From: Candidatus Dojkabacteria bacterium HGW-Dojkabacteria-1
Lineage (GTDB): Bacteria > Patescibacteriota > Dojkabacteria > SC72
Assembly (NCBI GenBank): GCA_002840365.1
Contig: PHAO01000001.1
Span: 15,594-79,593 of the forward strand
Length of the DNA: 64,000 bases
Direction of reading: 5' to 3'
Part shown: positions 2,216-30,750 of the stretch, in pieces
Layout: every line of letters starts with the position of its first letter
How positions within the stretch are numbered: the first letter of the stretch is position 1
The notes under the pieces: model-generated
Seen by the model: only the letters and a program-made list of their open reading frames with translations
Told to the model about the DNA's origin: nothing
The model's database searches: none
Made by a program: the position numbers and the translations under genes

Positions 2216-4738
2216 CTAAAAATTAATAGGTGGGAATGGACTTGGTGACTGAGGTTTCTCTTCTACTTTTTTATCCAAATCAGACCTTCTGTTTATATCA
2301 AGGTTTACGATATTTACATCCCTACCATATTTAAGTCTAGACATCTGTTTAATAATTCTTGCAACCTCAGTATTCGATTTCATATCAAATCCACTCTCAG
2401 GGAATTTAGGACCATACCTAGTATCCAACGAAAACGGACTTGGATACGAACCATTATTAAGCATCTTTACATAGTAATGACCCATTCCTTGATTTATTAA
2501 ATCTGTTGCTTTTACATATGATTCAAACTGAGGCTCTAAGAAATTTCCATCATCAGTACCACATCTTGCGATAAAGAGAGATCCAACGTTACCAAAAACA
2601 GCCCCTTTTATATTCTCAGGTAGCTGACCTATATATTGATGTGCAAGTGTGAGATTGAGTTTGTATTTTCTTGCTTCTGAAAGAATAGAGGTAAACTCAT
2701 CTGTAGCAAAATTTTGGAACTCATCTGCATAAAAGAAGAAGTCTTTTCTCTGATCTTCAGATATATTTTCTCTACTCAACGCAGCAGCTAGCATTTTTTG
2801 TACCAAGAGCAACCCCAAAAAGGACATATTCTCTTCACCTAAAAGACCCTTTGCTAGATTTACAATTAATATCTTACCTCCATCCATAACCTCTCTAAAA
2901 TCAAAGGATGATTGAGATTGCCCTATTACATTCCTAATCGCTAGGTTCGTAGTAAATTTATCAAACTTAGAGATAAAGTAACCCAAACTCTCAGATTTGG
3001 TCTTTTGATCTGTCTTTGCAACCTGGTCTACCCAATATCTTCTAACTAACTCATCTTTAATTATTGGAAGCCACTTTTCTTGTACCCATTTTTCATCCTG
3101 TAATATTCTAACTACCTCTATTAATGTCGAACCTTTTTCACTCATAGCAGTTAACATTGCATTTCTTACTGCCTGCTGCATCATAGGACCAACATATCCT
3201 TGATTATGAGGATCAAATAATCGTATAAGTAAGGCGATAAAGCTATTTACTATCTGATGCATATGCTGCTCATTGTAATATTCCATAATGTTTAAACCAA
3301 AAGGTCTTTCAAAATCTGCAGCATTGAAATATATAACATCCTCTACTCTCTCTGGTGGTATTCTTTCTAATATCATTTCAGCAGTTTGACCATGGGGATC
3401 TATGAAACAAACACCATCACCATTATAGATGTCTTGTATTATCATTCTTGTCATAAGCCAAGATTTACCAGTACCTGTTTGACCTAAAATATAACTATGC
3501 CTTCTTCTATCCTCCCTTTGGAAACATATCGCTTTTACCTTATCTCTAAACACATTGTTACCAACCCACACGGTATCTTTTGATTTAATATCAGAACTAA
3601 TGACATTGTCTGCAGGAATTTCCCTTGCAAGTAGCCAGTTAATATTAGGAGTTGTTATTTCTTTGTTAGGGAAGTGATATATAGTTGCCAACTCTTCGAC
3701 ATTCAGGATACTTACTTGTTCAATAGAACTTCTCCTATATACAACATCCAACATAAATTCCTTCTCTTGCTCCTTACCTTTTATTGATATTTTCTTAAAC
3801 CTATTTATCCCTGGGTTACTGAATTGGTCAAAGGCACCCACTATATTGTCCAAATGCATATTAGCAAGGGATTCATCAGATGCTGTTGTAACAATTCTAA
3901 TATCTGTATTAAAACCATTTTTAGAAACCTTTTTACTAATACCTTGTAATTTCTCCTGGCTTACATTTATTTTTTTCTTTTCAGGGTCTGAGTTGTTGTT
4001 CTCAACCTTTTTTACAAAAGAAGCACCATTCTTTTGCCACTTACTATCACTTGGAGAAATAACTACTTGAATCATAGCACCCTCCCCTTCAGACATTTTG
4101 CTTAGTGTACTAAGGATATTGGCAAGAGGATCTCCTGTAAAATCTTCAGATACTTTTATTGGATTATAGCTATCATCATCAAGTGCTAAACGTGTGAATG
4201 CAACTTTCGAATTATCTCCAAAGATGTTGTAATCATCTACCTTTTTAACATCTGCATCTTGATATGAACCTAGTATTTGTTTTTCAACTAAATCTCCTAA
4301 CTTCTTAGGGCTATATACATAGAATTTAATCTCTCCTGGTAATGCCATTATCTCAAAACTAATTGAATTACTAACTGTGAATTTCTCTGCAAAGCCCTTT
4401 CCTTTACCACCAATACCAACAAGATTAGCAAACATTTTTTCGGCCACTCCTACTTCTGTTTCGTTCCCTCTTGGTACACGAACCTCATACAAGGTCCAAT
4501 CTTTTGCTTTGTCGTTTCTATCCTTCTTTTGTAGTTTTTTTCTTATCCTAAAGAATGCAAAGGCTCCTAGTCCTGCAATCAAAACAAGAAGTACAAGTAT
4601 ACCCCATGGAAAAGTAAAACCAGAGCCTGTCATTTCGCCATATGTATCTTTTGGATATTGCTTTGGGTCCGCTATTATTACTTCATCATCTCTGTTTGAT
4701 GGCATTGGACCTATTTGAGCAAGAGTATATGATTTCAT
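2216..4738 (-). CDS. Type IV secretion-type P-loop ATPase (VirB4/TrbE or VirD4/TraG-like; FtsK-HerA superfamily) with an N-terminal transmembrane segment.
   Basis: Walker A GQTGTGKSWLM lies near residue 420 and Walker B FFYADEFQNF near residue 670, with a downstream LTLAHQYIGQL motif. A single transmembrane helix (FTFPWGILVLLVLIAGLGAFAFF) lies near the N-terminus. The layout (Walker A about 420 aa in) resembles VirB4, while the DEFxNF box resembles T4SS coupling proteins. Confidence 0.55.
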   Translation of the reverse strand: MKSYTLAQIGPMPSNRDDEVIIADPKQYPKDTYGEMTGSGFTFPWGILVLLVLIAGLGAFAFFRIRKKLQKKDRNDKAKDWTLYEVRVPRGNETEVGVAEKMFANLVGIGGKGKGFAEKFTVSNSISFEIMALPGEIKFYVYSPKKLGDLVEKQILGSYQDADVKKVDDYNIFGDNSKVAFTRLALDDDSYNPIKVSEDFTGDPLANILSTLSKMSEGEGAMIQVVISPSDSKWQKNGASFVKKVENNNSDPEKKKINVSQEKLQGISKKVSKNGFNTDIRIVTTASDESLANMHLDNIVGAFDQFSNPGINRFKKISIKGKEQEKEFMLDVVYRRSSIEQVSILNVEELATIYHFPNKEITTPNINWLLAREIPADNVISSDIKSKDTVWVGNNVFRDKVKAICFQREDRRRHSYILGQTGTGKSWLMTRMIIQDIYNGDGVCFIDPHGQTAEMILERIPPERVEDVIYFNAADFERPFGLNIMEYYNEQHMHQIVNSFIALLIRLFDPHNQGYVGPMMQQAVRNAMLTAMSEKGSTLIEVVRILQDEKWVQEKWLPIIKDELVRRYWVDQVAKTDQKTKSESLGYFISKFDKFTTNLAIRNVIGQSQSSFDFREVMDGGKILIVNLAKGLLGEENMSFLGLLLVQKMLAAALSRENISEDQRKDFFFYADEFQNFATDEFTSILSEARKYKLNLTLAHQYIGQLPENIKGAVFGNVGSLFIARCGTDDGNFLEPQFESYVKATDLINQGMGHYYVKMLNNGSYPSPFSLDTRYGPKFPESGFDMKSNTEVARIIKQMSRLKYGRDVNIVNLDINRRSDLDKKVEEKPQSPSPFPPINF

Positions 4739-5115: not shown

Positions 5116-5565
5116 TTATATCATAAATTCTCTCTTTTCCAAGTGTAACTCTCTTTCTAAATCTCTTTTCTTCTCCTGAAGTTTTTTCTCATACTTTTTC
5201 TTACCTCTTGCTAAACCAATTTCTACTTTAAGATTAGGACCTTTAGAATAGATACTCAAAGGAATCAAAGCTAAGTTTCCCTGCTTCACTTTACTCTCTA
5301 AGTATACCAATTCTCTCTTTTTTACCAAGAGCTTTTTAGATCTCGCAGAATCATAATCAGGGGATCCATCGTATTTGTACTTAGGGATATCTGCATTTAC
5401 AAGCCACAGCTCTCCCCCTACAACCTTTACATACGAATCTCCTAAATTACACCTTCCATCTCTTACAGATTTTACTTCTGCACCAGTAAGAGAAATTCCT
5501 GCTTCTAATTTTTCAAGCACTTCATAATTAAAAAGGGCTTTCTTGTTAACAATTTTCATGCCCAA
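5116..5565 (-). CDS. smpB: SsrA-binding protein SmpB.
   Basis: The N-terminus KIVNKKALFNYEVLEKLEAGISLTGAEVKSVRDGR matches the SmpB consensus (…IA.NKKA…Y.I.E..EAGI.L.G.EVKS.R). The length fits (149 aa) and the C-terminal tail is basic. Confidence 0.85.
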   Translation of the reverse strand: MGMKIVNKKALFNYEVLEKLEAGISLTGAEVKSVRDGRCNLGDSYVKVVGGELWLVNADIPKYKYDGSPDYDSARSKKLLVKKRELVYLESKVKQGNLALIPLSIYSKGPNLKVEIGLARGKKKYEKKLQEKKRDLERELHLEKREFMI

Positions 5566-5587: not shown

Positions 5588-7867
5588 CTATAATCGAATC
5601 TTCCAAACAGTGGAAGAGTCTAACATATACAAAGTTTTTTGATCTCTGTTTACAACAAAGTCTCTTACATTTTCAAACACCTTTTCTCTACTACCCCTAT
5701 ACACATATTGATTTCTTAAAACAGCTTGATTAGGATGCCTTATCTCTCCTCCACCCTCTATTGGCTTAACCAATCTAACAATTCTCCTATCTTCACTATC
5801 AAAGACATACAAATCATAGTTTAGGTCTCCTCTTGTATATCCATATGTAAGATTTTTAAACTCTCCATCTAATCCTACAATGTCTAATCTTGCAGGAATT
5901 TGTTTACTTTCAAAATAGCTATAGATATACCTCTTTAATCCGTCTGCTCCTGAAGTAAGTATATATACACTCAAATCAGCCATAATGTCATTCGCTTGTT
6001 TTAAAGATTCTTCCTTAATATATCCAAAAGAAAGACCATATCCTGTTCCAAAATTGTTAGATTTCAACAAAACTCCTGCATCTCTATCTAGGATATATAC
6101 ATTGTCTGTATCAGTTAATACCGCAAATTCAGCAATATCATTTGCCCCAATATTATCAATCCCTAATCCTGTTAATTTTGCAAATGGTTTGAATCCTCCC
6201 TCACTATCATACTCTGCTCTTACTACACCAACTTTCAAATCTACAACAAAAATACCACTTCTACCCGTATATATCATTGTAGGTTCTTGGAGTATTCGAT
6301 CAGGGTCCGACAATCTTAGAACTTCTTTGTTGTAAAGTGAAACTCTAAATACTGCCTTAAGTCCAGAATCTACTACAAGAAGATACTCGTTTGCTCTTGA
6401 ATCTTGATAAATTGCAATATCTTGAGGTTTAGAACCCTCACCAAAAGCAAGCCTAGTATCTATGAATGATTCAATAGATCCATCGGAATCTACAAGACCG
6501 ACTCTCTTGTAAAGGTTATCTTGAATACCCAAGACTCTTCCTTCAAGCTGTTTTAATTTTTCAGAATCTTTCTCTCCTAGTTTTTCAGGTATATTTCCAA
6601 GTTCTGACTGTGCTTTAAAAAGTAGCATTTCAGCACCACTCCTATCTGTTCTCGCTTTCTCTTCAGCAGATGTAACAGACGTTTCTACACTACTAAATAT
6701 TTCATTTGCTTGTTTACTAATAGCCCGTGCTTCTTTCTGATCTATTGTAAATTTTGCACCACCAACGATAACTACAATACCTAAGAATACTAGTCCAGCA
6801 ATCTTAAATCTCTCTATCTTCTTGTTCTTTATCTTGTATCCATCTACTTTAAAACCTTTGAATTCATTCTTTCTTGCGAGATTTATATCTGACTGAGAAA
6901 ATTTTGCAGATACTTTTTTGTACCACCTCTGCTTTGCAAATTTCTCATTTAGATTAAGAAGTATGCCTTTGCTAATTCTCTTTATCGAGTACCATACCTT
7001 TCTAAAAATTTCTTTAACTCCTTCAAACAGAGGTTTTAATTTAGCAAGCATTGGAGATACTTTTTCTCCAATTCTAAGCAAAAATGTTTTTAATGGTAGA
7101 AACCAATTCTTCAAATCAAATCTCCTTTCTTGCCTTACAGCCTTAGCTTCAACCTCTTTTTTTTCAACAACTATCTCACCTTTTTCATCTATTTTCACAT
7201 CAGACTCAATTAGCGCTACTTCCTGTTCATCTAATTCCTCTCCCTTTGTGAATATTAATATGCCTTCCCCATCTCCTAATTCGTGAGCCATATCATCCAA
7301 TCTTTCTAGTATAGATTTTGAATTTGGAAGACCAGTTAAACTACTCATACTGTTTTTAACAAAACCCTTGGTAGAAGCAAGAAGTATATCCTCTTCCTCA
7401 AGTAGTAAACCTGCTGTTTTAGCACCTTTTTTGGAGAGCATCTCATGTATATCAACTATCTTTCCCTTTTTGTAAATATATATGTCACAATCACCCAAAT
7501 ATCCTACATACAGACCAGATGAGCCTGAAACAAATACAGAAAAATTAATGTCTACACCATGATCAGAAATATTTTTGTCATTTGTAATTAATTGCTTTAT
7601 CCTTCTTGTTGCTTCATTTAGAGCTATCTTCAATGCTTCATTTGTAGAATCAGCTTTCGAATATTCAAAACCATCAACTAAACCATCCCATGCAAATTTG
7701 GCAATGTTAGCCCCTGGAATATCAACTTCGCTTTTAACCGAGAGAAGTCCATACATTTCGATATTTTTGTCGTGCTTACTTCTAACAGGTCTAGTATAGT
7801 GGAATACTCCTGTATAAAGCTTCTTTTTGTCTGAATTGTTTAAGTATTGAGAGGCAGTAATATACAT
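5588..7867 (-). CDS. Large bitopic membrane protein, hypothetical. It has a possible degenerate PP2C-like N-terminal domain and a repeat-rich extracytoplasmic C-terminal region.
   Basis: The cytoplasmic N-terminal ~200 aa contain ...VFVSGSSGLYVGYLGDCDIYIYKKGKIVDI..., reminiscent of the PP2C GDSR block. A transmembrane helix (IAGLVFLGIVVIVGG) follows at about residue 350, and the C-terminal 400 aa are rich in G/D/Y repeats. Confidence 0.45.
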   Translation of the reverse strand: MYITASQYLNNSDKKKLYTGVFHYTRPVRSKHDKNIEMYGLLSVKSEVDIPGANIAKFAWDGLVDGFEYSKADSTNEALKIALNEATRRIKQLITNDKNISDHGVDINFSVFVSGSSGLYVGYLGDCDIYIYKKGKIVDIHEMLSKKGAKTAGLLLEEEDILLASTKGFVKNSMSSLTGLPNSKSILERLDDMAHELGDGEGILIFTKGEELDEQEVALIESDVKIDEKGEIVVEKKEVEAKAVRQERRFDLKNWFLPLKTFLLRIGEKVSPMLAKLKPLFEGVKEIFRKVWYSIKRISKGILLNLNEKFAKQRWYKKVSAKFSQSDINLARKNEFKGFKVDGYKIKNKKIERFKIAGLVFLGIVVIVGGAKFTIDQKEARAISKQANEIFSSVETSVTSAEEKARTDRSGAEMLLFKAQSELGNIPEKLGEKDSEKLKQLEGRVLGIQDNLYKRVGLVDSDGSIESFIDTRLAFGEGSKPQDIAIYQDSRANEYLLVVDSGLKAVFRVSLYNKEVLRLSDPDRILQEPTMIYTGRSGIFVVDLKVGVVRAEYDSEGGFKPFAKLTGLGIDNIGANDIAEFAVLTDTDNVYILDRDAGVLLKSNNFGTGYGLSFGYIKEESLKQANDIMADLSVYILTSGADGLKRYIYSYFESKQIPARLDIVGLDGEFKNLTYGYTRGDLNYDLYVFDSEDRRIVRLVKPIEGGGEIRHPNQAVLRNQYVYRGSREKVFENVRDFVVNRDQKTLYMLDSSTVWKIRL

Positions 7868-7872: not shown

Positions 7873-8130
7873 TTAACCTAAAAGAATTATAAAGGTTGCT
7901 AACAAAGCAACAACCAAGGATACCAATAAATTAATATATACCAAAGCCTTTATCTTCCCAGCATTTTCCGATTCTACAGTATCTACCAATATCTTAACCT
8001 TTAATACGAGCATCAGTGAGTAAAAGATATTCCCTATCAAGATCACAATCAAAGGTAACTTAAGGACATCACCAAGATTAATAGTGAATCTCATCGTATC
8101 CTCAAAAAGTTTTTCATATATTCCATCCAT
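7873..8130 (-). CDS. Small two-transmembrane membrane protein.
   Basis: It is 85 aa with two hydrophobic helices, and its stop is adjacent to the start of the upstream bPH gene. Confidence 0.4.
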   Translation of the reverse strand: MDGIYEKLFEDTMRFTINLGDVLKLPLIVILIGNIFYSLMLVLKVKILVDTVESENAGKIKALVYINLLVSLVVALLATFIILLG

Positions 8131-8131: not shown

Positions 8132-8764
8132 TTAGATACCTCCTTTTTGTTTAATTTCTAATAAATCGTTCAAGATATCCTGCATGTCTCTTGGTTTAGG
8201 TAGCATTGTTAATACAAAATCTACTCCATGACCTGCAGTATCAATATCCAAATTACCAACATCAAAGAATGTTCCTATAAAACCTACATGCTGATGTGTA
8301 ATATCCTCTATCTTTTCTAATTGAGCTTCAGAGTATGAGTGGAAAAATGCGTTGTTCATCTTAACAATTACAATTCTCTGATCAGTCACAATATGAATAG
8401 TGTAATACCATTTAAGAAAGGTTGTAAGGAGAAGGGTGGAAGCAACCCCTATCGAAAGAACGAACATGCCTGTATACAATATTGGTGTACCAAGGATTGG
8501 GAAAGAAGAAGACAGTAAAAGCAAAATCAAAGGCAAAAGAAGAACTAGTAATGATATGAATAAATCGGGGACATAAGCAATCCAATGCCTTCTAACCATT
8601 AATACTATCTCTTCATCCTTGTCTCTTCCGTAGAAACTGATTTTTTTAGGAAATGCAGAAAAACCTGACAGACGAATTTTTTTCTCTTCCTCATACACCC
8701 TATCAACGAAAGATTTGTTTGATTTAAGGAACTTTTTGGGGATATCTTTTCTAAGCTGTTTCAT
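8132..8764 (-). CDS. Membrane protein with a bacterial PH-like (bPH_2/DUF304, YdbS-like) domain.
   Basis: A basic N-terminus is followed by two transmembrane helices and then ...YTIHIVTDQRIVIVKMNNAFFHSYSEAQLEKIEDI..., typical of membrane-flanked bPH domains. Confidence 0.45.
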   Translation of the reverse strand: MKQLRKDIPKKFLKSNKSFVDRVYEEEKKIRLSGFSAFPKKISFYGRDKDEEIVLMVRRHWIAYVPDLFISLLVLLLPLILLLLSSSFPILGTPILYTGMFVLSIGVASTLLLTTFLKWYYTIHIVTDQRIVIVKMNNAFFHSYSEAQLEKIEDITHQHVGFIGTFFDVGNLDIDTAGHGVDFVLTMLPKPRDMQDILNDLLEIKQKGGI

Positions 8765-8804: not shown

Positions 8805-10628
8805 TTACTTCTTATGAATATTTATATGTACGAACCCACTCTGAGGTATTCTTAAGTGGCCTGGTGCACGTAGGTTAAATATTGTTTTAAAGTCATTCCC
8901 ACTCATGGTTATAACTCCAGCATTAGTTGTAAATACAACGGAAGTAGAGCTACCATTACTACTGGATACTATAGCAGAGGATACGGAAGTTACTGGTTTT
9001 GCTGCTAAAGATCTTAATTCTGCATGAGTATATGGGTTACCTGTTGAGTGACATGCATCAAATATTGGCACTATCCTACTATCATTTCTATTCTTTGCCA
9101 CCCATACTTGATACGCATTAATTAAATCTGACATTTCTGCCTGGGAAAGCCATGGATTTCTACCACACGTTGAACTTGTCTCGCTATATGTTTGCCTGTA
9201 CCACGCTTTGTAGAACCAAGATACATTAGAGAGTCTGTCCCATGCCCTACTCATCCAATCACCATTTCCAGTGCCATCTGTAGTATCCCAACCTATTTGA
9301 TTACCCCAACCTCCATGAACGGCTGCATACTGCGCAGAGAATACTGCACCTGCAGCATCGGTAAGAACAATACCTCTAGTTGCTTCAACAGCTGTTTTCC
9401 ATGCCCCAGTTTTAGGCGAAGGACCAGCTACCTGACAACTTTCTGTTGTACATATTGCTTTACGACCATTCTGTGTATAGTTAATAGCATATGTTCTTGC
9501 AGCTATTGCCTGGGCTTTTAATACCTCCATAGGCCATGACTCAGGAACTTCTTGAATTCTCAAAAGATAATCATCTTCAAAATTGAGGGTACCATATGTT
9601 GTAGTTGGTATATTGACCATAATATTTTCGATAGCACCACTTACAACAACAGTGCCTGTTCTAAAGACCCTTCCTGGATAGTATGCACCAAGAATTTGCT
9701 GATAGTTTTGTCCTGCATTTGCCCTAGCTCTTGCCCCCCACTGACTCATTCCATTCCTGTGTGTGTAAGCACCAATTGAGAAAACCCCAAAGGAACCAAC
9801 GGGTGCGTTTGCGTTAAATCCCGCTAATGTTGAGTTGTAATCTCCACTAATAGGGACAGAATCAGGATTTACATGTGTACCTCCCTGCCTTACGATTATT
9901 AATTGATATTGTAAATCTGATAGTTCAGCAGAGAGACCATTAATCGTTTTTACGACATTTTTCTTATTAGCCAATTCACTATTCAATTCTTTCTGAAGCT
10001 TGTTTCTCTCAGCTAAAACCAATGCATATGAATCATCTAAATCTTTCTTCTGCTCATCAAGTTCTTTCTTCTCAAGCTCTAGACCTTCTTTCATTTCACT
10101 AAGCGATGTAAACTCCCCATTTATCTTCTCAATATCAGCTCTTAATATTGATATTGCACTCTTTTTAACAAAAAGATTCTGTAAAAGATTGTCTAAATTA
10201 CTAAAGGAAAATATTAGCTGTGCACTATCATGCCTTGATTGCATATATAACTCTGTAGAAACCATATCAAAAAGTTCCTTTTTAACATTTAGTAACTCCT
10301 GTTTTTCATCTATTAGTTTTAATTTCTCTTCAATAGCTACATTTTTAACATCAATCTCTTGTTGTAATTTGGTTATTTCAGCATTCAAAAGATTAACCTT
10401 TTCACTTAGAGTGTAATTACTCCCACTTATCTCAGCTATTCTTTTCTCGATATTAGAAAGAGAAGATTTGTTTTTGTTCAATTCTTCTGTCTTCTTGTTT
10501 ATCTCATTCTCTAACTCCTCTATCGTATTCGAATATACAGGAGAAGACCAAGAAAGCACGAACAGTGCTACAAAAGATGAAAGGAGGGAAAGTATTAAAA
10601 ATTGTTGAGCAGATCTATACCTGGACAT
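8805..10628 (-). CDS. Secreted SpoIID/LytB-domain protein (putative peptidoglycan lytic transglycosylase) with an N-terminal coiled coil.
   Basis: A signal peptide MSRYRSAQQFLILSLLSSFVALFVLSWSSPVYS is followed by about 200 aa of heptad-rich coiled coil. The C-terminus carries ...LKAQAIAARTYAINYTQNGRKAICTTESCQVAG...AVHGGW, matching the SpoIID/LytB amidase-enhancer domain. The start was trimmed to the ATG at 10628. Confidence 0.65.
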   Translation of the reverse strand: MSRYRSAQQFLILSLLSSFVALFVLSWSSPVYSNTIEELENEINKKTEELNKNKSSLSNIEKRIAEISGSNYTLSEKVNLLNAEITKLQQEIDVKNVAIEEKLKLIDEKQELLNVKKELFDMVSTELYMQSRHDSAQLIFSFSNLDNLLQNLFVKKSAISILRADIEKINGEFTSLSEMKEGLELEKKELDEQKKDLDDSYALVLAERNKLQKELNSELANKKNVVKTINGLSAELSDLQYQLIIVRQGGTHVNPDSVPISGDYNSTLAGFNANAPVGSFGVFSIGAYTHRNGMSQWGARARANAGQNYQQILGAYYPGRVFRTGTVVVSGAIENIMVNIPTTTYGTLNFEDDYLLRIQEVPESWPMEVLKAQAIAARTYAINYTQNGRKAICTTESCQVAGPSPKTGAWKTAVEATRGIVLTDAAGAVFSAQYAAVHGGWGNQIGWDTTDGTGNGDWMSRAWDRLSNVSWFYKAWYRQTYSETSSTCGRNPWLSQAEMSDLINAYQVWVAKNRNDSRIVPIFDACHSTGNPYTHAELRSLAAKPVTSVSSAIVSSSNGSSTSVVFTTNAGVITMSGNDFKTIFNLRAPGHLRIPQSGFVHINIHKK

Positions 10629-10664
10629 TAAAGAAATTATACCATGAACACACAAAAGGCAAAG

Positions 10665-10982
10665 TTAGGCTCCGACAAACTCAAGAATTGCTACAAGTAT
10701 TGCTCTAATTAGAAAAAGAAATACCAACCCTATTACTGCCCATGTTAGAGTTCCTTGTGCTTGCTGTTTCTTTGCAGGATCTCCACCGGAGATAATCCAC
10801 ATGTATCCACCATAGATTAGCATTGCGACTGCAATTAGAGCACCAATAGGCATAATTAAATCAAAAAGATTTTCAATAGGTCCAAATATCTCCTCTATTC
10901 TTGGAGGAGCAGCATTTGAATATTGAGCATGTACAGGAGAGACAAAAAGCTTACTAATTCCTAATACTATACTTTCTATCAC
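10665..10982 (-). CDS. VirB2/TrbC-like (T4SS-type) pilin-family small membrane protein, paralog 5.
   Basis: A signal-like N-terminus (…VSPVHAQ) is followed by two transmembrane helices separated by the conserved loop YGGYMWIISGGDPAKK. It shares the core motif A.A..IY.G(Y/F).(Y/F)I.(S/A).GD(P/E).K…A(V/I)(V/I)G(L/F) with its four neighbours. Confidence 0.5.
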   Translation of the reverse strand: MIESIVLGISKLFVSPVHAQYSNAAPPRIEEIFGPIENLFDLIMPIGALIAVAMLIYGGYMWIISGGDPAKKQQAQGTLTWAVIGLVFLFLIRAILVAILEFVGA

Positions 10983-10984
10983 AG

Positions 10985-11260
10985 TTATATTCCCAAAAAA
11001 TTATCTAATATGAATTGTATAACAGATGGTGCTAAAAATACCAGTATCATTCCTAAGAGAGAAAATATCAATGACCTGTTTGCTGCAGCAATCTTTTTTT
11101 CATCACCCATAGACACTATATACTGAAAACCAGCTACAACAATCATAATGACAGCAAAAAGAGCTGCAAAATTAATTGCCCAGTTAAGAAGCTCAACAAT
11201 GAAGCCTGCTAAATCTGTATGTGTTACTGTCTCAATTTTAGTTATATCTATCACTTCCAT
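10985..11260 (-). CDS. VirB2/TrbC-like pilin-family small membrane protein, paralog 4.
   Basis: It is 91 aa with two transmembrane helices and the loop AGFQYIVSMGDEKK, matching the same paralog motif. Confidence 0.5.
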   Translation of the reverse strand: MEVIDITKIETVTHTDLAGFIVELLNWAINFAALFAVIMIVVAGFQYIVSMGDEKKIAAANRSLIFSLLGMILVFLAPSVIQFILDNFLGI

Positions 11261-11267
11261 AGTTAAT

Positions 11268-11298
11268 AAAAAAAGAAGGCCCCAAAAGGGGCCTTTTT
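11268..11298. terminator. Intrinsic bidirectional terminator hairpin between pilin paralogs.
   Basis: AAAAAAAG, then GGCCCC-AAAA-GGGGCC, then TTTTT: a perfect 6-bp GC stem flanked by an A-tract and a T-tract. It lies directly 3' of the 119-aa pilin gene on the minus strand. Confidence 0.6.
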
Positions 11299-11311
11299 CA
11301 AATTCTAAGAA

Positions 11312-11671
11312 TTACTTCAAAATGTTTGTTAATACAAACTGAACAAGCATTACTGCAATAAAACATACAACTAGACCTACAATTGCGAATGTCAATGTTT
11401 TTGTTGCTTTCTCTACTTTTCCTTCATCTCCACTAGCTGAAATGTACATGTATCCAGAGTAGATTAACATACCTACTGCTGCTAATGCTGCCAAACCGAT
11501 TGCCCAGTTAAGCATTGTGATAATCCATGAGTCGAGTGTAGACCCTACCCCATCTATACCACCCAACCAATCAGAGGCTCTCTTTTGTGCAAAAGCTTCT
11601 GTTAAAAGGCCTGAGAATGCAACATATGTTGCAACAACACCACTTGATATCTTTGCTAAAGTATTCTTCAT
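11312..11671 (-). CDS. VirB2/TrbC-like pilin-family protein, paralog 3. This is the candidate major subunit.
   Basis: It has a clear Sec signal peptide (MKNTLAKISSGVVATYVAFSGLLTEAFA|Q), then two transmembrane helices with the loop YSGYMYISASGDEGK. It has its own upstream AT-rich region (11672-11738) and a strong terminator immediately downstream. Confidence 0.55.
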   Translation of the reverse strand: MKNTLAKISSGVVATYVAFSGLLTEAFAQKRASDWLGGIDGVGSTLDSWIITMLNWAIGLAALAAVGMLIYSGYMYISASGDEGKVEKATKTLTFAIVGLVVCFIAVMLVQFVLTNILK

Positions 11672-11738
11672 TTTGTATTTATATAATATTATATTTAGCT
11701 ACCAGATTATATTATAGCTAGAGCACAAATTGCAACAC

Positions 11739-12080
11739 CTAGCTTAGAATATTATCCAAAAGAAATAGTACGATCGTTCTTGCTAAAAAAACTATTACCA
11801 AGCCAACGACTGCTGCTGTTAGTGCACCACTACCCTTTTGTATCTTCTCTGGATCACCACTTGCTGTGATAAACAAAAAGCCAGCATAAACAATCATAGC
11901 AACCGCAACTAGCGCAGATAAACCTACCAATGCATTTAAACCAAAAATTACAATATCCATAAATCCCTCGAAAGTTGTAAATCCATCTTTAACGACTGGA
12001 GCATTGAAGGTATATCCACCAATAGTAATTCCTAAAGGTATTACGTTTTTCTTTCTATCTTCCACCGATATTAATACCAA
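11739..12080 (-). CDS. VirB2/TrbC-like pilin-family protein, paralog 2.
   Basis: It has two transmembrane helices with the loop YAGFLFITASGDPEK. It overlaps the upstream paralog by 26 nt, so the true start may lie downstream. Confidence 0.45.
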   Translation of the reverse strand: MVLISVEDRKKNVIPLGITIGGYTFNAPVVKDGFTTFEGFMDIVIFGLNALVGLSALVAVAMIVYAGFLFITASGDPEKIQKGSGALTAAVVGLVIVFLARTIVLFLLDNILS

Positions 12081-12387
12081 ACAAATTACTTATTAAAAGC
12101 AATATAGCTACAGACATAAGAATAAATAGAAAACCTATTATTGCATTTGTGATAACCTCTTTTCCCTGCTTAAGCTTATCCGGGTCTCCCTGGCTTGTCA
12201 TAAGCTGATACGCTGCAAAAGCAAGTAATGCAAATACAGAAAATACTGCCAATGGGATAGCTAAAGATATTACTGAATCCATAAAACTACCGACATCAGA
12301 TGATTCTGAAAGGTTATTTACTTCTTTTAATGCATCACTAAGTGAGTTCGCGTATATTTTTGTACTGTTAATCATAAACACTCGCAT
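12055..12387 (-). CDS. VirB2/TrbC-like pilin-family protein, paralog 1.
   Basis: It has two transmembrane helices with the loop YQLMTSQGDPDK and the same downstream A(I/V)IG(F/L) block. Confidence 0.45.
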   Translation of the reverse strand: MRVFMINSTKIYANSLSDALKEVNNLSESSDVGSFMDSVISLAIPLAVFSVFALLAFAAYQLMTSQGDPDKLKQGKEVITNAIIGFLFILMSVAILLLISNLFGINIGGR

Positions 12388-12419
12388 TATACTAAAAAAA
12401 TGATATATAGAAAACTAGG

Positions 12420-19604: not shown

Positions 19605-20120
19605 ATGAAAAACAATATATTAAATACAATCTATTGGATATTGATTCTTTTTGTCGTACTAGTTGCAATCATTCCAGCAATATCTGCCTTCAATCTTAAA
19701 CTACCTTTTAGTTTGTATTCTGTAGAAACAGGCTCTATGGAACCAGTAATTAAACCTGGTGATTTGATTTTTGTAAAAGAAGAAGAAAGATATCAGGTTG
19801 GAGATATAATCTCTTTTACAGATCAACGAGGCGGAGGAATTACGACAATAACTCACAGAATAGCTAGTATAAATGAAGATGGAACCTTTATGACAAAAGG
19901 AGATGCAAACAGTGGAGTTGATGCAGATTCTGTGAGAAGCGAAGATATCGTAGGTAAGTATTTCTTTAGAATTCCACTACTAGGATATATTATTAGTTTT
20001 GTAAAAACACCCTTAGGATTTTTAATACTAATTGCAATACCAGCAATAATAATTGCGTATGAAGAATTTAGAAAGATTGTTAAACATGTTTCTAGCAAAA
20101 AGGAAAACTACCAGAAGTGA
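19605..20120 (+). CDS. sipW: Signal peptidase I of the SipW (archaeal/eukaryotic, S26B) type.
   Basis: It carries the catalytic Ser box VETGSMEPVIKPGDL, the His box ITHRIASI and KGDANSG. It has an N-terminal transmembrane helix and a C-terminal transmembrane helix. Confidence 0.75.
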   Translation: MKNNILNTIYWILILFVVLVAIIPAISAFNLKLPFSLYSVETGSMEPVIKPGDLIFVKEEERYQVGDIISFTDQRGGGITTITHRIASINEDGTFMTKGDANSGVDADSVRSEDIVGKYFFRIPLLGYIISFVKTPLGFLILIAIPAIIIAYEEFRKIVKHVSSKKENYQK

Positions 20121-21930: not shown

Positions 21931-22340
21931 TGGTGGAGACGGTGGGATTCGAACCCACGTCCAAAAGTTAAGAACTGTGCCATATACAAATGTATTTAGA
22001 TTTATATAGCCAAACAAAGCTAAAAATCTAACAAAAAACTCTGTTTGCTCAGTAATTGTATTCAACTAATATCCCCTACTGACAAGAGATAGTAGCTATA
22101 CCCTAGTAACGACTATCTAACACACTAACTAGAGATAGAAGTGTTAGACACTAACCGAACTTAATCAGCTAGACTTAAGCAAAATTGTAAGCATATAAAG
22201 GTGCAGTGAATGCAGCCCTTAGCTTACTTGCAAAAGCGTTAAGTTTGTTTTCTACACTTATCTGTGCTTTAGTTTTACGAACTAAAAAACGATTTGTGAC
22301 AAACAGCCCCTATGACTTCTGTCGAAAGCCTTACGTCCCC
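21931..22340 (-). ncRNA. ssrA: Transfer-messenger RNA (tmRNA, ssrA).
   Basis: The minus-strand 5' end GGGGACGTAAGGCTTTCGAC and 3' end GTGGGTTCGAATCCCACCGTCTCCACCA match the tmRNA tRNA-like domain consensus. An internal open frame ...ASKLRAAFTAPLYAYNFA-TAA (stop at 22177..22175) gives a Mycoplasma-like ...NFA tag ending. The length is about 410 nt. Confidence 0.85.
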
Positions 22341-26032: not shown

Positions 26033-26761
26033 ATGAATATCTTAATTATAGAGAAATCTAAAACTATTTCATACATTTTAAAAAAGAGTTTAATTGCATA
26101 TGGATATAACGTTACAGAAGATAGTGGAAGTTTTAATGTAGAGAATATTGTAAGAAGGAATATATTTGAAATATTAATTTTAGATACAAATATAACAGGT
26201 ACTTTTAATACAATAGATATACTTAAGAAAGTAAAAAGATTTAAAGATATTGAATGTAAGATACTTGGCATATGTAGTACAGGTGGATGGAGGGATAAGG
26301 TAAATTTCTTAAATAATGGTGGAGACGATGTCTTGTCTTACCCATTCCCTATGCAAGAATTAATAGCTAGAATACAATCTCTTCTTAGAAGACCAAAAAG
26401 CTATATTGATAATCAAATATATATTGGAGATGTTGTTTTGGATACTAGAAGTAAAACTGTATCTGAAAAAGAAAAAGATGTTGATTTAAGGAGAAAAGAG
26501 TATGAACTTTTTGAGTATCTTGTTAGGAACAAAAATAGGACTGTAAGTAGATGCGAATTACTAGATCATGTGTGGGACTATAGAAGCTATACTGGTTCAA
26601 ACACTGTTGATGTACATATAAAAAGAATAAGGGATAAAATATCCAATAAAGGAATAATTGAAACTGTACATGGACAGGGTTACAGAATTAAGGATAGAAA
26701 AAATCCTAAAGCATCATTGGCATTACAAGATGTACAAAATCAGGATCATCAGCTATCTTAA
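26033..26761 (+). CDS. OmpR/PhoB-family winged-helix transcriptional regulator with a degenerate (atypical) receiver domain.
   Basis: The C-terminal trans_reg_C domain is present (RKEYELFEYLVRNKNRTVSRCELLDHVWD...TVDVHIKRIRDKI...TVHGQGYRI). In the N-terminal receiver-like domain the acidic pair is replaced (IIEKS), the Asp in ILILDTN is retained, and the conserved Lys is replaced (SYPFP). No histidine kinase is adjacent. Confidence 0.7.
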   Translation: MNILIIEKSKTISYILKKSLIAYGYNVTEDSGSFNVENIVRRNIFEILILDTNITGTFNTIDILKKVKRFKDIECKILGICSTGGWRDKVNFLNNGGDDVLSYPFPMQELIARIQSLLRRPKSYIDNQIYIGDVVLDTRSKTVSEKEKDVDLRRKEYELFEYLVRNKNRTVSRCELLDHVWDYRSYTGSNTVDVHIKRIRDKISNKGIIETVHGQGYRIKDRKNPKASLALQDVQNQDHQLS

Positions 26762-27827
26762 ATACCCCTGGTTTTACTGTTTCACTACATTCAAAGATAA
26801 TATCTTCACTATCTAAATGGTTTAATACATCAGAAAGCAATCTAGAGCTAAATGCTATTTTAAGGGAATCTCCCTCTATATTCCCTTTAAAAGTACTTTT
26901 GTTACTACCTAAATCTGTTTGTGTTGCAGAAAGAGTAACAGAATCACCTTTAGAATCAATATCTAGTATTAACTTATTTCCTAATACACTCTTTGCGATA
27001 ATGTTAGTAATCTTTAAAGAATTAAGAAAATCATTCTTACTTAATTTTGTAAGTGTTTTATAACCAGTAGGAATGATTTGTCTATATTCAGGAAATTGTC
27101 CATCTATCAATCTTGATACTAAATCAATATCTCCATATTTAAACAGTATTTGATTCCTATCTTCAATTAAATATACTTCTATCATATTATCTTCACCTAT
27201 CTCAGTTACAATATGAGCCAATTCTAAAAGAGCTTTAACAGGTACTAAGACATTAACATCCTTTTCAGAATTTACATCCAACTTTACTATTTGTCTTGAA
27301 AGTCTTAATCCATCAGTTCCAACAAAAGAGATACTATCTCCTGAAATTTCTAACAGAATACCTGTTAATACGGGTTTTATATCATCACTAGCTGCAGCAA
27401 ATGCAACCCTATTTACAGCCTTTACTAATAGATCTTTAGGTAGTTTTAATAAAGGTTTATTATCAGTAACAGTAGCTACAGCAGGAAAATCATCTGCAGG
27501 CATGGTGTTTAAACTTGCAAAATTTCCTGTACTTGAGATATTAAAGTTTTGATTATCCAAAGTAACATCAATAACCTCACTTGGAACACTATTTACAAAT
27601 TCTGTTAGCTGTTTTGCAGGTACAGTTATCTTTCCTTCAGATTTAACATCTGCTCCAATCCAAGTATTTAAACCTATCTCTAAATCTGTAGCTGTGATAA
27701 TTAATTTACCTTTACTGCTTTCAAATTGAACATTATTAAGTATTGGTAAACCAGGTTTACTACTTACTACCCTACTAACAATATTTAGATACTTTGCAAA
27801 GGTATCTTGATTACATGTAAATTGCAT
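26706..27827 (-). CDS. dnaN: DNA polymerase III beta subunit (sliding clamp).
   Basis: The N-terminus MQFTCNQDTFAKYLNIVSRVVSSKPGLPILNNVQFES is classic DnaN. It is 373 aa and lies immediately downstream of dnaA. Confidence 0.85.
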   Translation of the reverse strand: MQFTCNQDTFAKYLNIVSRVVSSKPGLPILNNVQFESSKGKLIITATDLEIGLNTWIGADVKSEGKITVPAKQLTEFVNSVPSEVIDVTLDNQNFNISSTGNFASLNTMPADDFPAVATVTDNKPLLKLPKDLLVKAVNRVAFAAASDDIKPVLTGILLEISGDSISFVGTDGLRLSRQIVKLDVNSEKDVNVLVPVKALLELAHIVTEIGEDNMIEVYLIEDRNQILFKYGDIDLVSRLIDGQFPEYRQIIPTGYKTLTKLSKNDFLNSLKITNIIAKSVLGNKLILDIDSKGDSVTLSATQTDLGSNKSTFKGNIEGDSLKIAFSSRLLSDVLNHLDSEDIIFECSETVKPGVFKIADDPDFVHLVMPMML

Positions 27828-28263
27828 TTTATGTCTTTAAAACAAATATTATATATAGGCAGTAGTAACTAGTATATTCTACTTAATCTTAATGTAGTTT
27901 TCTACTCTTTTATTTAATTAATATATTAAGTTGTAATAGTAGTAGAGAGTGTGTATATGTTTATAACCTTCCTATCTTACCTCGATATTACTCCTTGTAA
28001 TAATAGTTTATAACGCCTACTCTATCTGTCGAAAACTTTTAACTACCTTTTTATTAAATATTCTTTAACTGTATTCTTTCTCTTATCTTTTCTCTGTGGA
28101 TTCAAATTGTGTATTCCTAAGGATAACAGGCTATTTATTGTGAATATTAAAAACCTTTAACAAAAGCATTTCTAATTAAAAGGTAGTATCTAAAACAAAT
28201 CTTATTTTGTGGAATACACCCCTGTTATTCGTAAGATACCCACACCTATCCACCACATATACA
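27828..28263. other. dnaA-dnaN intergenic region with several degenerate DnaA boxes. It is a candidate oriC or DnaA-regulatory region.
   Basis: This 436-bp AT-rich spacer contains near-consensus boxes: TGTGGATTC (28096-28104), TGTGGAATA (28209-28217) and cTATCCACc (28247-28255). Confidence 0.45.
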
Positions 28264-29736
28264 CTATTGTTGTGTAATTTCTCTCATACAAAGATCTATT
28301 TTTTCTGCAAAACGACTATCTTTTTCCATTCTTTTGGATATTTGTTTGTAAGCATGTATTACGGTTGTATGATCTTTTCTATTTACCTCTTTTGCCACTC
28401 TCTCAAGAGGTAAATCCAATTCTTTTCTAAGTAGGTACATTGCTACTTGTCTTGCAAGCGCCATATACGAGGTTCTTCTTCCTCCTTTAATATCTGCAAT
28501 AGGAACATCAAAAACATTAGATACAGATTTAATTATCTTTTGAGGAGTAATCTTTATCCTTTTACTTTCAATATCTACATCTAAAATTTTTAAGACATCT
28601 TCTGAGGTTATCTTTTCTCCAAGGAGCATTAATGTAATAACTTTGTTTAAGGATCCTTCTAACTCTCTTACACTACTATCAATATTTTTTGCTATTAAAT
28701 CGATAAACTCCTCTGGCACTTTCGCTCTCTTTTCGAGAACACCCTGTTTCAATATTGCTATTCTTGTTTCATAATCAGGCATTTGTATATCTGCTACCAT
28801 ACCTCCTTCAAATCTAGACCTTAACCTATCAGTTATATTACGTATCTCTTTCGGTGGCCTGTCTGATGCTAGCAAAATCTGTTTGTTTGCATGATATAGA
28901 GTGTTAAATGTATGGAAAAGCTCCTCTTGTGTTTTAGGTAGTGTTTCTACAAACTGAACATCATCAATCATTAATAGGTCTACTTCTCTATACTTTGATC
29001 TAAAATCTTCATTTCTTTTTGTTCTAATAGCTTCAATCATTTCATTAAGGAATTGCTCTATCGAAACATATACAACTTTTTTATCTGGAGATTCTTTTAA
29101 CAATTGATTACCAATTGCTTGCATAAGGTGTGTCTTTCCAACACCAGTATTTCCATAGAAAAAGACGGGATTATATGCTCTACCCAAATCTTTAACTACC
29201 GCATGTGCAACTGCCTCTGCAAGCCTATTATGTGAACCAACTACAAAGGTTTCAAATGTATATTTAGGATTAAGCTTCGAATATGTAAGTGCATCTTGAT
29301 ATTTTTTCTTTTCATTCTCAGAAGCAGAGAAAAGATCTATATTCTGACTACCAGTATTCAGAAACTGATATCTACTCTCTTTCCCCTTTTCCTCTATTGA
29401 AGATTTAATAAAAAAATCGATCTGTAAATTCTGTCCAGTAGCTTTAAGAAGACACCTTTGTAAGAGATTTTTGTAATCGTTTTGTATTAACCCTCTTTTG
29501 AATTCGCTCGTACATGAGAAAGTTGCAACTCCGTTATCTATTCTTTCTAAATATGTATCTGCAAACAAAGATTTATACTCCACCTTATCAAGAACCATTC
29601 TTAGGTTCTCAGAAACAATTTTCCATATATCATCATTATCCATCCTTTCGAAAGACTCTACTCTACCCTCTTCAATATTTGGTTTTGGAATATTCTCCAT
29701 ATATTTTTCAAAGTCTATTTTATCCATACTTAACAA
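28264..29736 (-). CDS. dnaA: Chromosomal replication initiator protein DnaA.
   Basis: It carries the AAA+ Walker A GNTGVGKTHLMQAIGN, the sensor motifs, and a C-terminal DNA-binding domain (…ALARQVAMYLLRKELDLPLERVAKEVNRKDHTTVIHAYKQI). Confidence 0.9.
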   Translation of the reverse strand: MLSMDKIDFEKYMENIPKPNIEEGRVESFERMDNDDIWKIVSENLRMVLDKVEYKSLFADTYLERIDNGVATFSCTSEFKRGLIQNDYKNLLQRCLLKATGQNLQIDFFIKSSIEEKGKESRYQFLNTGSQNIDLFSASENEKKKYQDALTYSKLNPKYTFETFVVGSHNRLAEAVAHAVVKDLGRAYNPVFFYGNTGVGKTHLMQAIGNQLLKESPDKKVVYVSIEQFLNEMIEAIRTKRNEDFRSKYREVDLLMIDDVQFVETLPKTQEELFHTFNTLYHANKQILLASDRPPKEIRNITDRLRSRFEGGMVADIQMPDYETRIAILKQGVLEKRAKVPEEFIDLIAKNIDSSVRELEGSLNKVITLMLLGEKITSEDVLKILDVDIESKRIKITPQKIIKSVSNVFDVPIADIKGGRRTSYMALARQVAMYLLRKELDLPLERVAKEVNRKDHTTVIHAYKQISKRMEKDSRFAEKIDLCMREITQQ

Positions 29737-29821
29737 AGTATATACAATATATAAAGGCAGTTAGGGGGCAGTGCTATGGTCGATTGGGACTGATATTCCA
29801 TTATATTGATTTTCAAAAAAA

Positions 29822-29830
29822 TGTGGATAA
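29822..29830 (+). promoter_or_regulatory. Perfect consensus DnaA box in the dnaA-rpmH intergenic region.
   Basis: TGTGGATAA at 29822-29830 lies within a 242-bp AT-rich spacer. Other partial boxes are nearby. Confidence 0.5.
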
Positions 29831-29978
29831 AGGAATAGGAATATATATTTTAACCTTTCTAAAAGAGACTTTTTTCTGTTACACTTTTTATCTAAGTTAC
29901 TTAGAGCTATTTTTGTCATCTCATGATAATACAAATATTTGCCATATGTATAGATGTTAATATATAATAGGCTCGTTT

Positions 29979-30161
29979 ATGAAAAGAACATATCAACCAA
30001 AAAATTTGAAGAGGATCAAGAAGTTCGGTTTTATGTCAAGAAACAAAACTTCTGCAGGAAAAGCTGTACTCAAAAGAAGAATCAAAAAAGGTAGGAAAAA
30101 TCTTTCTGTAAGTGATGAATACAAAACTTTAAGAAAGAAGCCTACTTCAAGAATTAGGTAG
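29979..30161 (+). CDS. rpmH: 50S ribosomal protein L34 with a short C-terminal extension.
   Basis: MKRTYQPKNLKRIKKFGFMSRNKTSAGKAVLKRRIKKGRKNLSV matches the L34 consensus. About 16 extra C-terminal residues follow. Confidence 0.8.
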   Translation: MKRTYQPKNLKRIKKFGFMSRNKTSAGKAVLKRRIKKGRKNLSVSDEYKTLRKKPTSRIR

Positions 30162-30176
30162 TGTATACTTAAACAT

Positions 30177-30509
30177 ATGCTTCCAAAGAAATACCGATTA
30201 GAACCAAAGAATCTCCAAAAGATTTACAAAGAAGGTAAGAAGTTCCGTGGCGAATATGGAATGCTTGTTGTAAAAGAATTAAATATTAACAATCCCCAAT
30301 TTGCTTTTGTAGTTAGCAAAAAGATTGGAAATGCTGTTCAAAGGCACAAAATGACTAGACTACTAAGACAGATAACTACAGAATTTTTAACAAAGGTCGA
30401 AGATAGTAAATTAGCATCTCAGTATATAGCATTTAAGTATAGTGATAACTATGAAGAACTTAAAAAAGAGTACCTTAAACAGCTTAAGGATGCTTTTAGA
30501 ATTGCCTAA
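30177..30509 (+). CDS. rnpA: Ribonuclease P protein component.
   Basis: It is basic and 110 aa, with an RnpA-like FAFVVSKKIGNAVQRHKMTRLLRQ motif. It lies between rpmH and yidD. Confidence 0.8.
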   Translation: MLPKKYRLEPKNLQKIYKEGKKFRGEYGMLVVKELNINNPQFAFVVSKKIGNAVQRHKMTRLLRQITTEFLTKVEDSKLASQYIAFKYSDNYEELKKEYLKQLKDAFRIA

Positions 30510-30750
30510 AGGATTTGAACTTCTCCTTATTCGTATTTACCAGAAAACTCTCTCACTTGATCACGGATACTTAGGAAAGGTTTATCCTAATCTAAGGGCA
30601 TGTAAATTTTCCCCTACTTGTTCTGAGTATGGGTATGAATCAGTAAAAAGGTTTGGTTTAATTAAGGGTAATTATTTGGCTCTAAAAAGATTCCTAAGAT
30701 GCAATCCTTGGAGCAAACCAGGACAATATGATCCTGTACCTGAAAAATAA
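30490..30750 (+). CDS. yidD: Membrane protein insertion efficiency factor YidD.
   Basis: LLIRIYQKTLSLDHGYLGKVYPNLRACKFSPTCSEYGYESVKRFG matches YidD. The start was moved to the internal Met at 30490 to give the usual ~85-aa length. Confidence 0.75.
   Translation: MLLELPKGFELLLIRIYQKTLSLDHGYLGKVYPNLRACKFSPTCSEYGYESVKRFGLIKGNYLALKRFLRCNPWSKPGQYDPVPEK

Follow-up and report, generated by a model that had tools for sequence, protein, structure and literature searches.

Five fixed types of predicted VirB2-like pilin in a tandem gene array of Dojkabacteria

A tandem array of PF18895 relatives

The window analysed here, a stretch of 64,000 nucleotides (nt) from Candidatus Dojkabacteria bacterium HGW-Dojkabacteria-1 (contig PHAO01000001.1), carries a tandem array of five small genes whose products resemble the VirB2-like pilins of type IV secretion systems (T4SSs). 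A preliminary description of this DNA, made from the letters alone, had placed five open reading frames (ORFs) of 105, 91, 119, 113 and 110 amino acids (aa) side by side between 10665 and 12387, and all of them are present there, adjacent and on the minus strand. Numbered as types 1 to 5 in the direction of transcription, and with family scores in brackets, they are:

12055..12387, minus strand: predicted pilin type 1, 110-aa ORF (PF18895 25.7 bits; positional orthologues in all related loci)
11739..12080, minus strand: predicted pilin type 2, 113-aa ORF with a TTG start (PF18895 47.2 bits; orthologues at position 2)
11312..11671, minus strand: predicted pilin type 3, 119 aa (PF18895 46.6 bits; NF045849 42.7 bits against a cut-off of 40)
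10985..11260, minus strand: predicted pilin type 4, 91 aa (PF18895 38.5 bits)
10665..10982, minus strand: predicted pilin type 5, 105 aa, GTG start (PF18895 55.1 bits; PF04956 25.3 bits)

The five ORFs are true paralogues. Nine of the ten possible pairs match each other in BLASTP at E <= 1e-10 under composition-based statistics, with identities of 24-51%, and the sole pair without a match is formed by the 110-aa and the 91-aa copies. The alignment over a conserved core that had been proposed by eye is therefore significant after composition correction. Residues G67, D68, K71 and G85 are invariant in all five copies, the last of these being a glycine early in helix 2. Hydropathy profiles of every copy show two hydrophobic segments of ~25-30 residues with a polar GD(P/E)xK loop between them, as the preliminary description had it. 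The ~70-residue structure that defines PF18895, a pair of hydrophobic helices with a short polar loop in between, is thus seen both by hydropathy and in an AlphaFold2 (AF2) model of the 119-aa copy. More specifically, this model consists of helices at residues 3-29, 46-78 and 83-116, of which the leader helix 3-29 is of low confidence, while the hairpin 46-78/83-116, closed by a 4-residue turn, is confident (core predicted local distance difference test score, pLDDT, ~80). A profile of the window pilins and their relatives from seven loci matched no other ORF of the window.

Curated models support the assignment of the five ORFs to the VirB2-like T4SS pilins, in line with the VirB2/TrbC-type family named in the preliminary description. 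The gathering cut-offs are 26.6 bits for PF18895 (T4SS_pilin), 27.9 bits for PF04956 (TrbC/VirB2) and 40 bits for NF045849 ('pilin-like conjugal transfer protein'). Four of the five copies pass PF18895 (55.1, 38.5, 46.6 and 47.2 bits). Type 1 misses it by 0.9 bit, matches three of the four other copies at E <= 1e-10, and has orthologues in three related loci (L004, L005 and L006) that carry unmarked PF18895 matches. All copies remain below the threshold of PF04956, with type 5 the best (25.3 bits, E 1.8e-5) and the others at 16.9 bits or less or without a match; some orthologues of the array carry precomputed PF04956 matches. NF045849 matches all five copies across helix 1, loop and helix 2, and only type 3 passes its cut-off. 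Relatives of the 119-aa copy are numerous and all carry PF18895, and the family comprises 73,606 representative clusters at E <= 1e-3.

Types, leaders and transcription signals across the Dojkabacteria

The array was compared with six related loci found with the 119-aa protein and with 80 species-level loci found with an 840-aa ATPase that is encoded downstream of it; counts of gene order come from 48 loci. In the six related loci, the gene that best matches each copy of the window stands at the corresponding position; exceptions are types 2 and 4 in L007, a locus with four pilin genes only. The order 1-2-3-4-5 is kept in 33 of the 48 species-level loci. Other complete arrays mostly differ by carrying 2-4 copies of type 3 or by the loss of type 4, and a few non-standard arrays end at a contig edge or show an irregular order. 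Type 3 alone varies in copy number, from 1 to 4, with 2-4 copies in 12 of the 48 loci. Each type has its own conserved signature, at a within-type identity of 0.42-0.53.

Within the orthologue sets of every type, column identity is 0.32-0.51 in the N-terminal part and 0.61-0.74 in the core, where conservation is highest in type 3 (0.74). The strong divergence of the N-terminal parts next to conserved cores had been noticed before and taken to suggest diversification of exposed parts. The observation is borne out; it is no evidence of a variable set that is still diversifying, since by sequence comparison the five copies are old, position-fixed, 1:1 orthologous types across the class and not recent variants. 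These fixed types argue against an analogy with antigenic variation for the set as a whole. The analogy may still apply to the type-3 duplicates, which in all pairs but one share 22-48% identity in the N-terminal part and 61-92% in the core; the exception is L016, with 72% and 90%, respectively. Among the loci found with the ATPase (L008-L087), many of those whose ATPases are 70-96% identical are filed as 'uncultured Candidatus Saccharibacteria bacterium', and one is filed as 'Thermococci archaeon'. The named organisms closest to them are Dojkabacteria, and these labels are hence probably taxonomic errors.

The types also differ in their N-termini, for which leaders were called by our own heuristics. 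The preliminary description had given the family a signal peptide and two helices. Two helices are present in all five copies, and a Sec-like leader, with K/R residues, a hydrophobic stretch and then an A-x-A site, is seen in types 3 and 5 and not in the other three. The leader of type 3, MKNTLAKISSGVVATYVAFSGLLTEAFA|Q, ends in the site ..TEAFA|Q that had been singled out earlier as clearly of Sec type; the A-x-A|Q site is kept in >90% of 25 orthologues, and the predicted mature part of ~91 aa would hold the two helices and the loop SGDEGK. Its exact sequence is that of CVU76_00140 of Candidatus Dojkabacteria (WS6) bacterium HGW-Dojkabacteria-1. The signal-peptide-like leader of type 5, MIESIVLGISKLFVSPVHA|Q, ends in ..PVHA|Q and is followed by a conserved PPRIE motif and, further on, the loop GGDPAKK; V-(F/Y/L)-A is the commonest cleavage-site motif among its orthologues. 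Type 4 is a leaderless two-helix hairpin with an acidic N-terminus of 18 residues and the loop MGDEKK. Its length is 89-99 aa across the panel, the gene is missing in some loci, and 0 of 38 orthologues has a leader resembling a signal peptide. Types 1 and 2 are atypical. The former lacks a normal hydrophobic leader and has a short N-terminus, with a conserved K-I-Y-A motif at its end, and the loop SQGDPDK; the latter has a KK-rich N-terminus followed by IPLGITIGG, without an A-x-A site. The true start of type 1 is probably ATG 12375 (106 aa), the ATG at 12387 of the longest ORF being over-extended, because a conserved TATAAT box overlaps the latter. Type 2 probably starts at GTG 12065 (108 aa), which overlaps type 1 by 11 nt, because the same 11-nt overlap is found in L001 and L002.

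Three putative transcription signals accompany the array:

12386..12391, minus strand: -10 box TATAAT within AGTATAAT, putative promoter for types 1 and 2, called from its pattern only
11706..11735, minus strand: internal sigma-70-like promoter before type 3, TTGCAA-18-TATAAT, 10/12
11266..11295, minus strand: terminator-like hairpin AAGGCCCC-TTTT-GGGGCCTT with a T-run, 16 nt past the type-3 stop

The element TTGCAA-18-TATAAT at 11735..11706 is the best promoter-like match in the region. It lies within the 67-nt AT-rich spacer between types 2 and 3, ~34-35 nt from the ATG of type 3, and the leader between them is AT-rich. A TTGHHN-N16-19-TAnAAT pattern recurs in 36 of 40 orthologous type-3 spacers against a mean of 1.2 in shuffles, in the consensus form TTGCA(A/T), 16-19 nt, TAnAAT. 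The window also contains a housekeeping sigma-70 gene (45021-46109). One relative has an additional gene, of 320 aa and without a Pfam match, precisely in the spacer between types 2 and 3 (L002 8981-9943; L003 201-1163). Its position in this promoter-bearing gap fits the gap as a boundary of transcription units.

The AGTATAAT box stands 5-10 nt ahead of the type-1 ATG in most related loci and ~10 nt from ATG 12375 in the window, a proximity that would imply a nearly leaderless mRNA. Such a spacing of only 5-10 nt between a TATAAT and a start codon is seen both at the first pilin gene and at the SpoIID gene that follows the array (window 12386-12391 and 10626-10640; L001-L007 and the 48-locus panel), which suggests leaderless or nearly leaderless mRNAs for both.

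The hairpin after type 3 (11295..11276) has 8 pairs, 6 of them G-C, at -16.6 kcal/mol, with the T-run behind it. A strong hairpin follows the last type-3 gene in five of seven loci (window, L001, L002, L004-L007), with stems of differing sequence. Across the 48-locus panel, terminator-like hairpins were found at 12 of 63 type-3 junctions and at 0 of 174 others (Fisher p = 5e-8) in a survey that used fixed windows and controls; an earlier version limited to called intergenic gaps had found few. These hairpins occur mainly in closer relatives of the window and are thus lineage-restricted. Both the promoter and the terminator that the preliminary description had assigned to the 119-aa copy are therefore seen, as a sigma-70-like element in the 67-nt spacer and an 8-bp GC-rich hairpin with a T-run. 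Its suggestion that this copy is the major subunit, with the others minor, gains comparative support from the same counts.

A conserved gene block with a VirB4-like ATPase

The array is part of a gene block that every related locus examined shares in syntenic order. Read along the direction of transcription, this block comprises an AP endonuclease, a UvrD/PD-(D/E)XK helicase-nuclease, the pilins, a coiled-coil SpoIID/LytB protein, a 210-aa membrane protein, an 85-aa DUF5657 protein, a 759-aa single-pass protein, SmpB, a 98-aa protein, the 840-aa ATPase and a Xer recombinase. Among the members that follow the pilins, some of them with transmembrane (TM) segments, are:

8805..10655, minus strand: protein with a coiled coil and a SpoIID/LytB domain (PF08486 55 bits, TIGR02669 102 bits)
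8132-8764, minus strand: 210-aa TM protein with a weak match to the bacterial PH domain (position kept in every related locus)
7873-8130, minus strand: 85-aa DUF5657 protein with two TM segments (same place in all related loci)
5588..7867, minus strand: 759-aa single-pass membrane protein, conserved between array and ATPase
2216..4738, minus strand: 840-aa VirB4-like ATPase, the presumed motor (Pfam DUF87, TrwB_AAD_bind)

The ATPase is encoded ~6 kb downstream of the array on the same strand, 7-11 genes away. Wherever the sequence extends at least 9 kb upstream of the ATPase gene, which is the case in 33 loci, the array is there (33 of 33). The genome scan with the ATPase yielded only relatives at the level of the Dojkabacteria (57-96% identity), so the evidence for this linkage holds within the class. 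The protein has a TM helix at 47-65, a DUF8128 domain and a P-loop domain (GQTGTGKS at 419-426; DEFQ Walker B at ~671), and its orthologues carry PF26449, PF01935 and PF02534. In a Foldseek search with its AF2 model, the only significant PDB matches were 14 chains of R388 TrwK/VirB4 (E 5e-7 to 2e-4, ~690-780 aligned columns), and no coupling protein was among the significant matches. Walker A and B lie at VirB4-like positions, and hhalign against TrwK and PrgJ aligned the Walker motifs only; phmmer against PDB sequences found nothing. On account of these fold matches and Walker positions we call the ATPase VirB4-like, with the caveat that the label comes from a low-confidence model discussed below.

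Residues 1-77 of the ATPase, ahead of DUF8128, include the TM helix at 47-65 and, after it, a stretch rich in Lys/Arg. In canonical systems a separate VirB3 anchors VirB4, a part that this N-terminal segment might take over. A survey of Patescibacteria reported no VirB3-VirB4 fusions (PMC12102498). Searches with Pfam and NCBIfam recognised no VirB3/PrgI-, VirB6/PrgH- or TrsD-like protein among the 98-, 85-, 210- and 759-aa neighbours, although divergent homologues may escape such searches, and TM counts yielded no polytopic VirB6-like candidate in the block. The scanned ORFs of the window, which comprise all but a few short ones, yielded no relaxase or coupling-protein family. The 759-aa protein gave no significant family match. 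It has one TM helix (356-374) and an N-terminal part with only a faint PP2C-like match, and by eye its C-terminal half shows repeated strand-like motifs of three hydrophobic residues and D, which could form a beta-propeller.

The SpoIID/LytB gene directly follows the array in six of seven inspected loci; in L005 a 128-aa DAGK_prokar gene stands between them. Its start is probably ATG 10628, with its own TATAAT ~7 nt upstream, instead of TTG 10655. The product is a candidate peptidoglycan-remodelling partner of the pilins and may be an analogue of VirB1.

Elsewhere in the window lie genes for signal peptidase I (19605-20120), dnaN (26706-27827), dnaA (28264-29736), yidC (30760-31650) and ksgA, with dnaN and dnaA ~16 kb from the array. 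The neighbourhood at 26706-31650 and 51873-52607 is of the origin type, with dnaN, dnaA, yidC, a gene for a KH/R3H (Jag-like) protein and, further along, ksgA; GC skew tracks gene orientation and shows no clean switch within the window that would mark a replication origin. A tmRNA gene at 21931-22340 encodes the tag peptide VENKLNAFASKLRAAFTAPLYAYNFA. Its partner smpB (5116-5565) stands between the pilin array and the ATPase gene in every related locus. In a 611-aa protein (34362-36197, minus strand), a Baseplate_J-like domain (26.5 bits) occurs together with one TM-like segment; its gene adjoins an FtsA/PilM-like gene (36202-37455), a phage-baseplate-type domain being unexpected in this chromosomal setting.

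Comparison with known systems and proposed role

Arrays of this kind have been described before. Quinonero-Coronel et al. (2025) found VirB2-like pilins near virB4 in 1,135 Patescibacteria assemblies by means of PF18895 and PF04956, among them 441 arrays of 2-11 pilin genes with a mean identity of 25% and a maximum of 54% (PMC12102498). These arrays are chromosomal, lie within 20 coding sequences of virB4, often stand near dnaA and lack a relaxase (PMC12102498). The array in the window agrees with them in having tandem PF18895-type genes (five) of low identity (24-51%), in its place on the chromosome within 20 genes of a VirB4-like ATPase and near dnaA, dnaN and ksgA, and in the absence of a recognised relaxase or coupling protein nearby. 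On these grounds, the kind of feature was already known. The differences concern its organisation. The published work read the copies as a source of versatility and variation, by analogy with the VirB2 paralogues of Bartonella and Anaplasma (PMC12102498), whereas the copies here form five fixed orthologous types, and neither the internal promoter nor the type-3-specific terminator is described there. In the Saccharibacteria, a predicted pilin series inside the T4SS cluster of Southlakia epibionticum ML1 is essential (Wang et al. 2023, PMC10633639; PMC12857230), and a 2025 review counts six structurally conserved, sequence-divergent VirB2-like pilins in this species (PMC12857230). The saccharibacterial cluster includes VirB3, VirB6 and VirB8, none of which is recognisable in the Dojkabacteria block. 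The function of Patescibacteria T4SSs has been described as completely unknown (PMC11665869).

We further compared the array with characterised pilins. Like R388 TrwL, Ti VirB2, RP4 TrbC and F TraA, the five copies are precursors of ~90-120 aa with two hydrophobic helices and a short polar loop, encoded near VirB4 and, in some copies only, with an A-x-A leader. They differ from these in staying below the PF04956 cut-off (25.3 against 27.9 bits), in lacking a significant match to TrwL or any solved pilin, in their monoderm-like host, in having five paralogues instead of one gene and in the leaderless copies. VirB2-like proteins are also used by Gram-positive T4SSs, as with PrgF, in a class defined as '(S)OMIMO', out-in-out, with or without a signal peptide (bioRxiv 10.64898/2025.12.18.695078). 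The array shares with PrgF of pCF10 the monoderm setting, the out-in-out two-helix topology, the optional leader and a 'D-D-P / G-D-P' loop at the same place, and PrgF has been proposed as a wall conduit. Unlike the array, PrgF matches no Pfam pilin family including PF18895, and no significant sequence relationship links the two (hhalign probability 3%); PrgF is a single gene beside the VirB6-like PrgH on a conjugative plasmid with a relaxase; the array consists of five chromosomal genes, with no relaxase found. All five copies match the Mycoplasma Mbov_0395 family (NF045849), with type 3 above its cut-off; four of the five fall below it, and the Mycoplasma genes are single and lie on integrative and conjugative elements.

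Taken together, we consider it probable that the five ORFs encode the VirB2-like pilins of an origin-proximal chromosomal Patescibacteria T4SS, as five old types that are not interchangeable. In a pilus or wall-spanning conduit driven by the VirB4-like ATPase, type 3 is, judged from sequence, likely the major subunit, and types 1, 2, 4 and 5 are low-abundance specialised ones. What points to type 3 is its own promoter, the terminator of this lineage, the conserved A-x-A|Q leader, the most conserved core and its being the only type that amplifies. Because the five types are fixed, and type 3 is transcriptionally set apart and uniquely duplicating, a division of labour is suggested and not an interchangeable pool.

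In the proposed mechanism, types 1 and 2 would come from a separate, nearly leaderless transcript, and the type-3 terminator, in this lineage, should lower the transcription of types 4 and 5, which would probably be reliant on read-through. Each product would adopt an out-in-out helical hairpin in the membrane; Sec and signal peptidase I would handle types 3 and 5, and YidC probably the leaderless type 4. From there, the VirB4-like ATPase would extract the pilins and polymerise them into a pilus or a conduit across the wall that consists mainly of type 3, with the remaining types as low-abundance base, adaptor or tip subunits. An opening in the cell wall would be made by the SpoIID/LytB enzyme. 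If the analogy with the Saccharibacteria holds, the structure may serve contact or exchange with a host cell.

Several observations weigh against this interpretation. The family name 'T4SS_pilin' is itself a prediction. A profile of the five copies matched no solved pilin among PDB sequences (only a designed protein, E 0.004), Foldseek with the 119-aa model returned nothing from the PDB at E <= 0.001, its top hits being unrelated helical proteins, and a 25-sequence pilin profile reached an hhalign probability of 0.3% against R388 TrwL and 3% against pCF10 PrgF; for helical hairpins of ~70 residues such comparisons with characterised pilins have little power. The leader calls come from our heuristics and not from SignalP. 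The AF2 model of the ATPase, on which the VirB4 call rests, is poor (mean pLDDT 54), and the sequence profile of the ATPase matches only the Walker A region of coupling proteins (DotL, TrwB). No VirB3-, VirB6- or VirB8-like protein was recognised in the block with Pfam and NCBIfam. With smpB and a UvrD-type helicase gene interleaved, synteny within one class may mirror slow rearrangement and not function. The terminator hairpin is missing in most Dojkabacteria of the panel, and lowered expression of types 4 and 5 is therefore no general rule.

Furthermore, the 150 best-scoring pilin relatives in a library of 1.84 billion proteins (P0241-P0390) are all single polypeptides with 2-17 pilin hairpin modules, and this is difficult to square with a simple filament made of free protomers. 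Examples are P0241 (552 aa), P0247 (364 aa; NCBI MDP3997021.1) and P0252 (1775 aa). Those that were read have one Sec-like leader and modules joined by short Gly/Ser/Thr-rich linkers, without internal leaders. These proteins are singletons from unclassified metagenome assemblies, and such 'poly-pilins' are not mentioned in the paper on Patescibacteria T4SSs (PMC12102498). If real, they mean that the modules can work while covalently linked, which would suit a ring or an assembly resident in the membrane better than a filament built from free protomers.

This motivates an alternative in which the five types are obligate, non-redundant parts of one hetero-oligomer, either with one subunit each in a five-fold layer or base beneath a type-3 polymer or with a split into base, shaft and tip. 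We regard it as unlikely. Were it true, the fused multi-pilin proteins would be the same architecture in one chain, and ultra-small bacteria would use their T4SS 'pilins' for a pseudo-symmetric conduit of several subunit types, in contrast to the homopolymeric pili of known conjugation systems.

It is rather improbable that the array is a set of interchangeable alternative major pilins that widen host range or evade recognition. The copies are only 24-51% identical, their N-terminal and presumably exposed parts diverge faster than the cores, and the duplicates of type 3 in 12 of 48 loci mostly have far more diverged N-termini. Yet interchangeable variants should turn over, convert or reshuffle, and only type 3 does so; the five types are 1:1 orthologues in fixed order across the whole class, each with a loop and helix signature of its own and a distinct kind of N-terminus (leader, none or short). 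The idea may thus fit the type-3 duplicates only.

We consider it improbable that the proteins are membrane-resident parts of a channel, or a short wall-spanning stalk with a VirB6-like protein, instead of a long pilus. Gram-positive PrgF has been proposed as a short wall conduit together with the VirB6-like PrgH (bioRxiv 10.64898/2025.12.18.695078), fusions of up to 17 modules behind one leader elsewhere suit a polytopic or ring-like assembly better, and the loop has little net positive charge. The conserved block, however, contains no recognisable VirB6-like polytopic protein. These data do not separate a short polymer from a long one. This possibility is a variant of the pilin interpretation more than a true alternative to it.

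That the ORFs encode small membrane proteins of some other kind (holins, class II bacteriocins or their immunity proteins, or another two-TM family), with the pilin label an artefact of hydrophobic composition, is most improbable: short two-helix proteins are prone to spurious similarity, no solved pilin is matched significantly and automatic JGI annotations of the orthologues are inconsistent ('cytochrome bd subunit 2', 'MASE1'), yet the similarity survives composition-corrected statistics, the conserved positions are specific polar residues (G-D-x-x-K, A-T-K-T-L-T) beyond the hydrophobic runs, and the array is chromosomal, origin-proximal and constantly linked to the VirB4-like ATPase. Matches to holins or class II bacteriocins, which the preliminary description had named as evidence that would speak against pilins, did not appear: Pfam gave none, PHROGs gave only matches at E >= 0.03 to families of unknown function, none in either reached E < 0.01, and no phage genes adjoin the array. 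Its further condition, that every copy should lack a signal peptide, does not hold either, as type 3 has a putative leader with the conserved A-x-A|Q site.

The locus is thus the Dojkabacteria case of a known kind of array and no new kind of system. New here are the five fixed old types, the internal promoter of type 3 and the type-3-specific terminator, and the fused multi-pilin proteins constrain models of how the subunits assemble. The Patescibacteria are a large and mostly uncultivated part of bacterial diversity, and the T4SS pilin series is essential in the one species tested (PMC10633639). Within the array, type 3 is indicated as the first gene for experimenters to tag or deplete.

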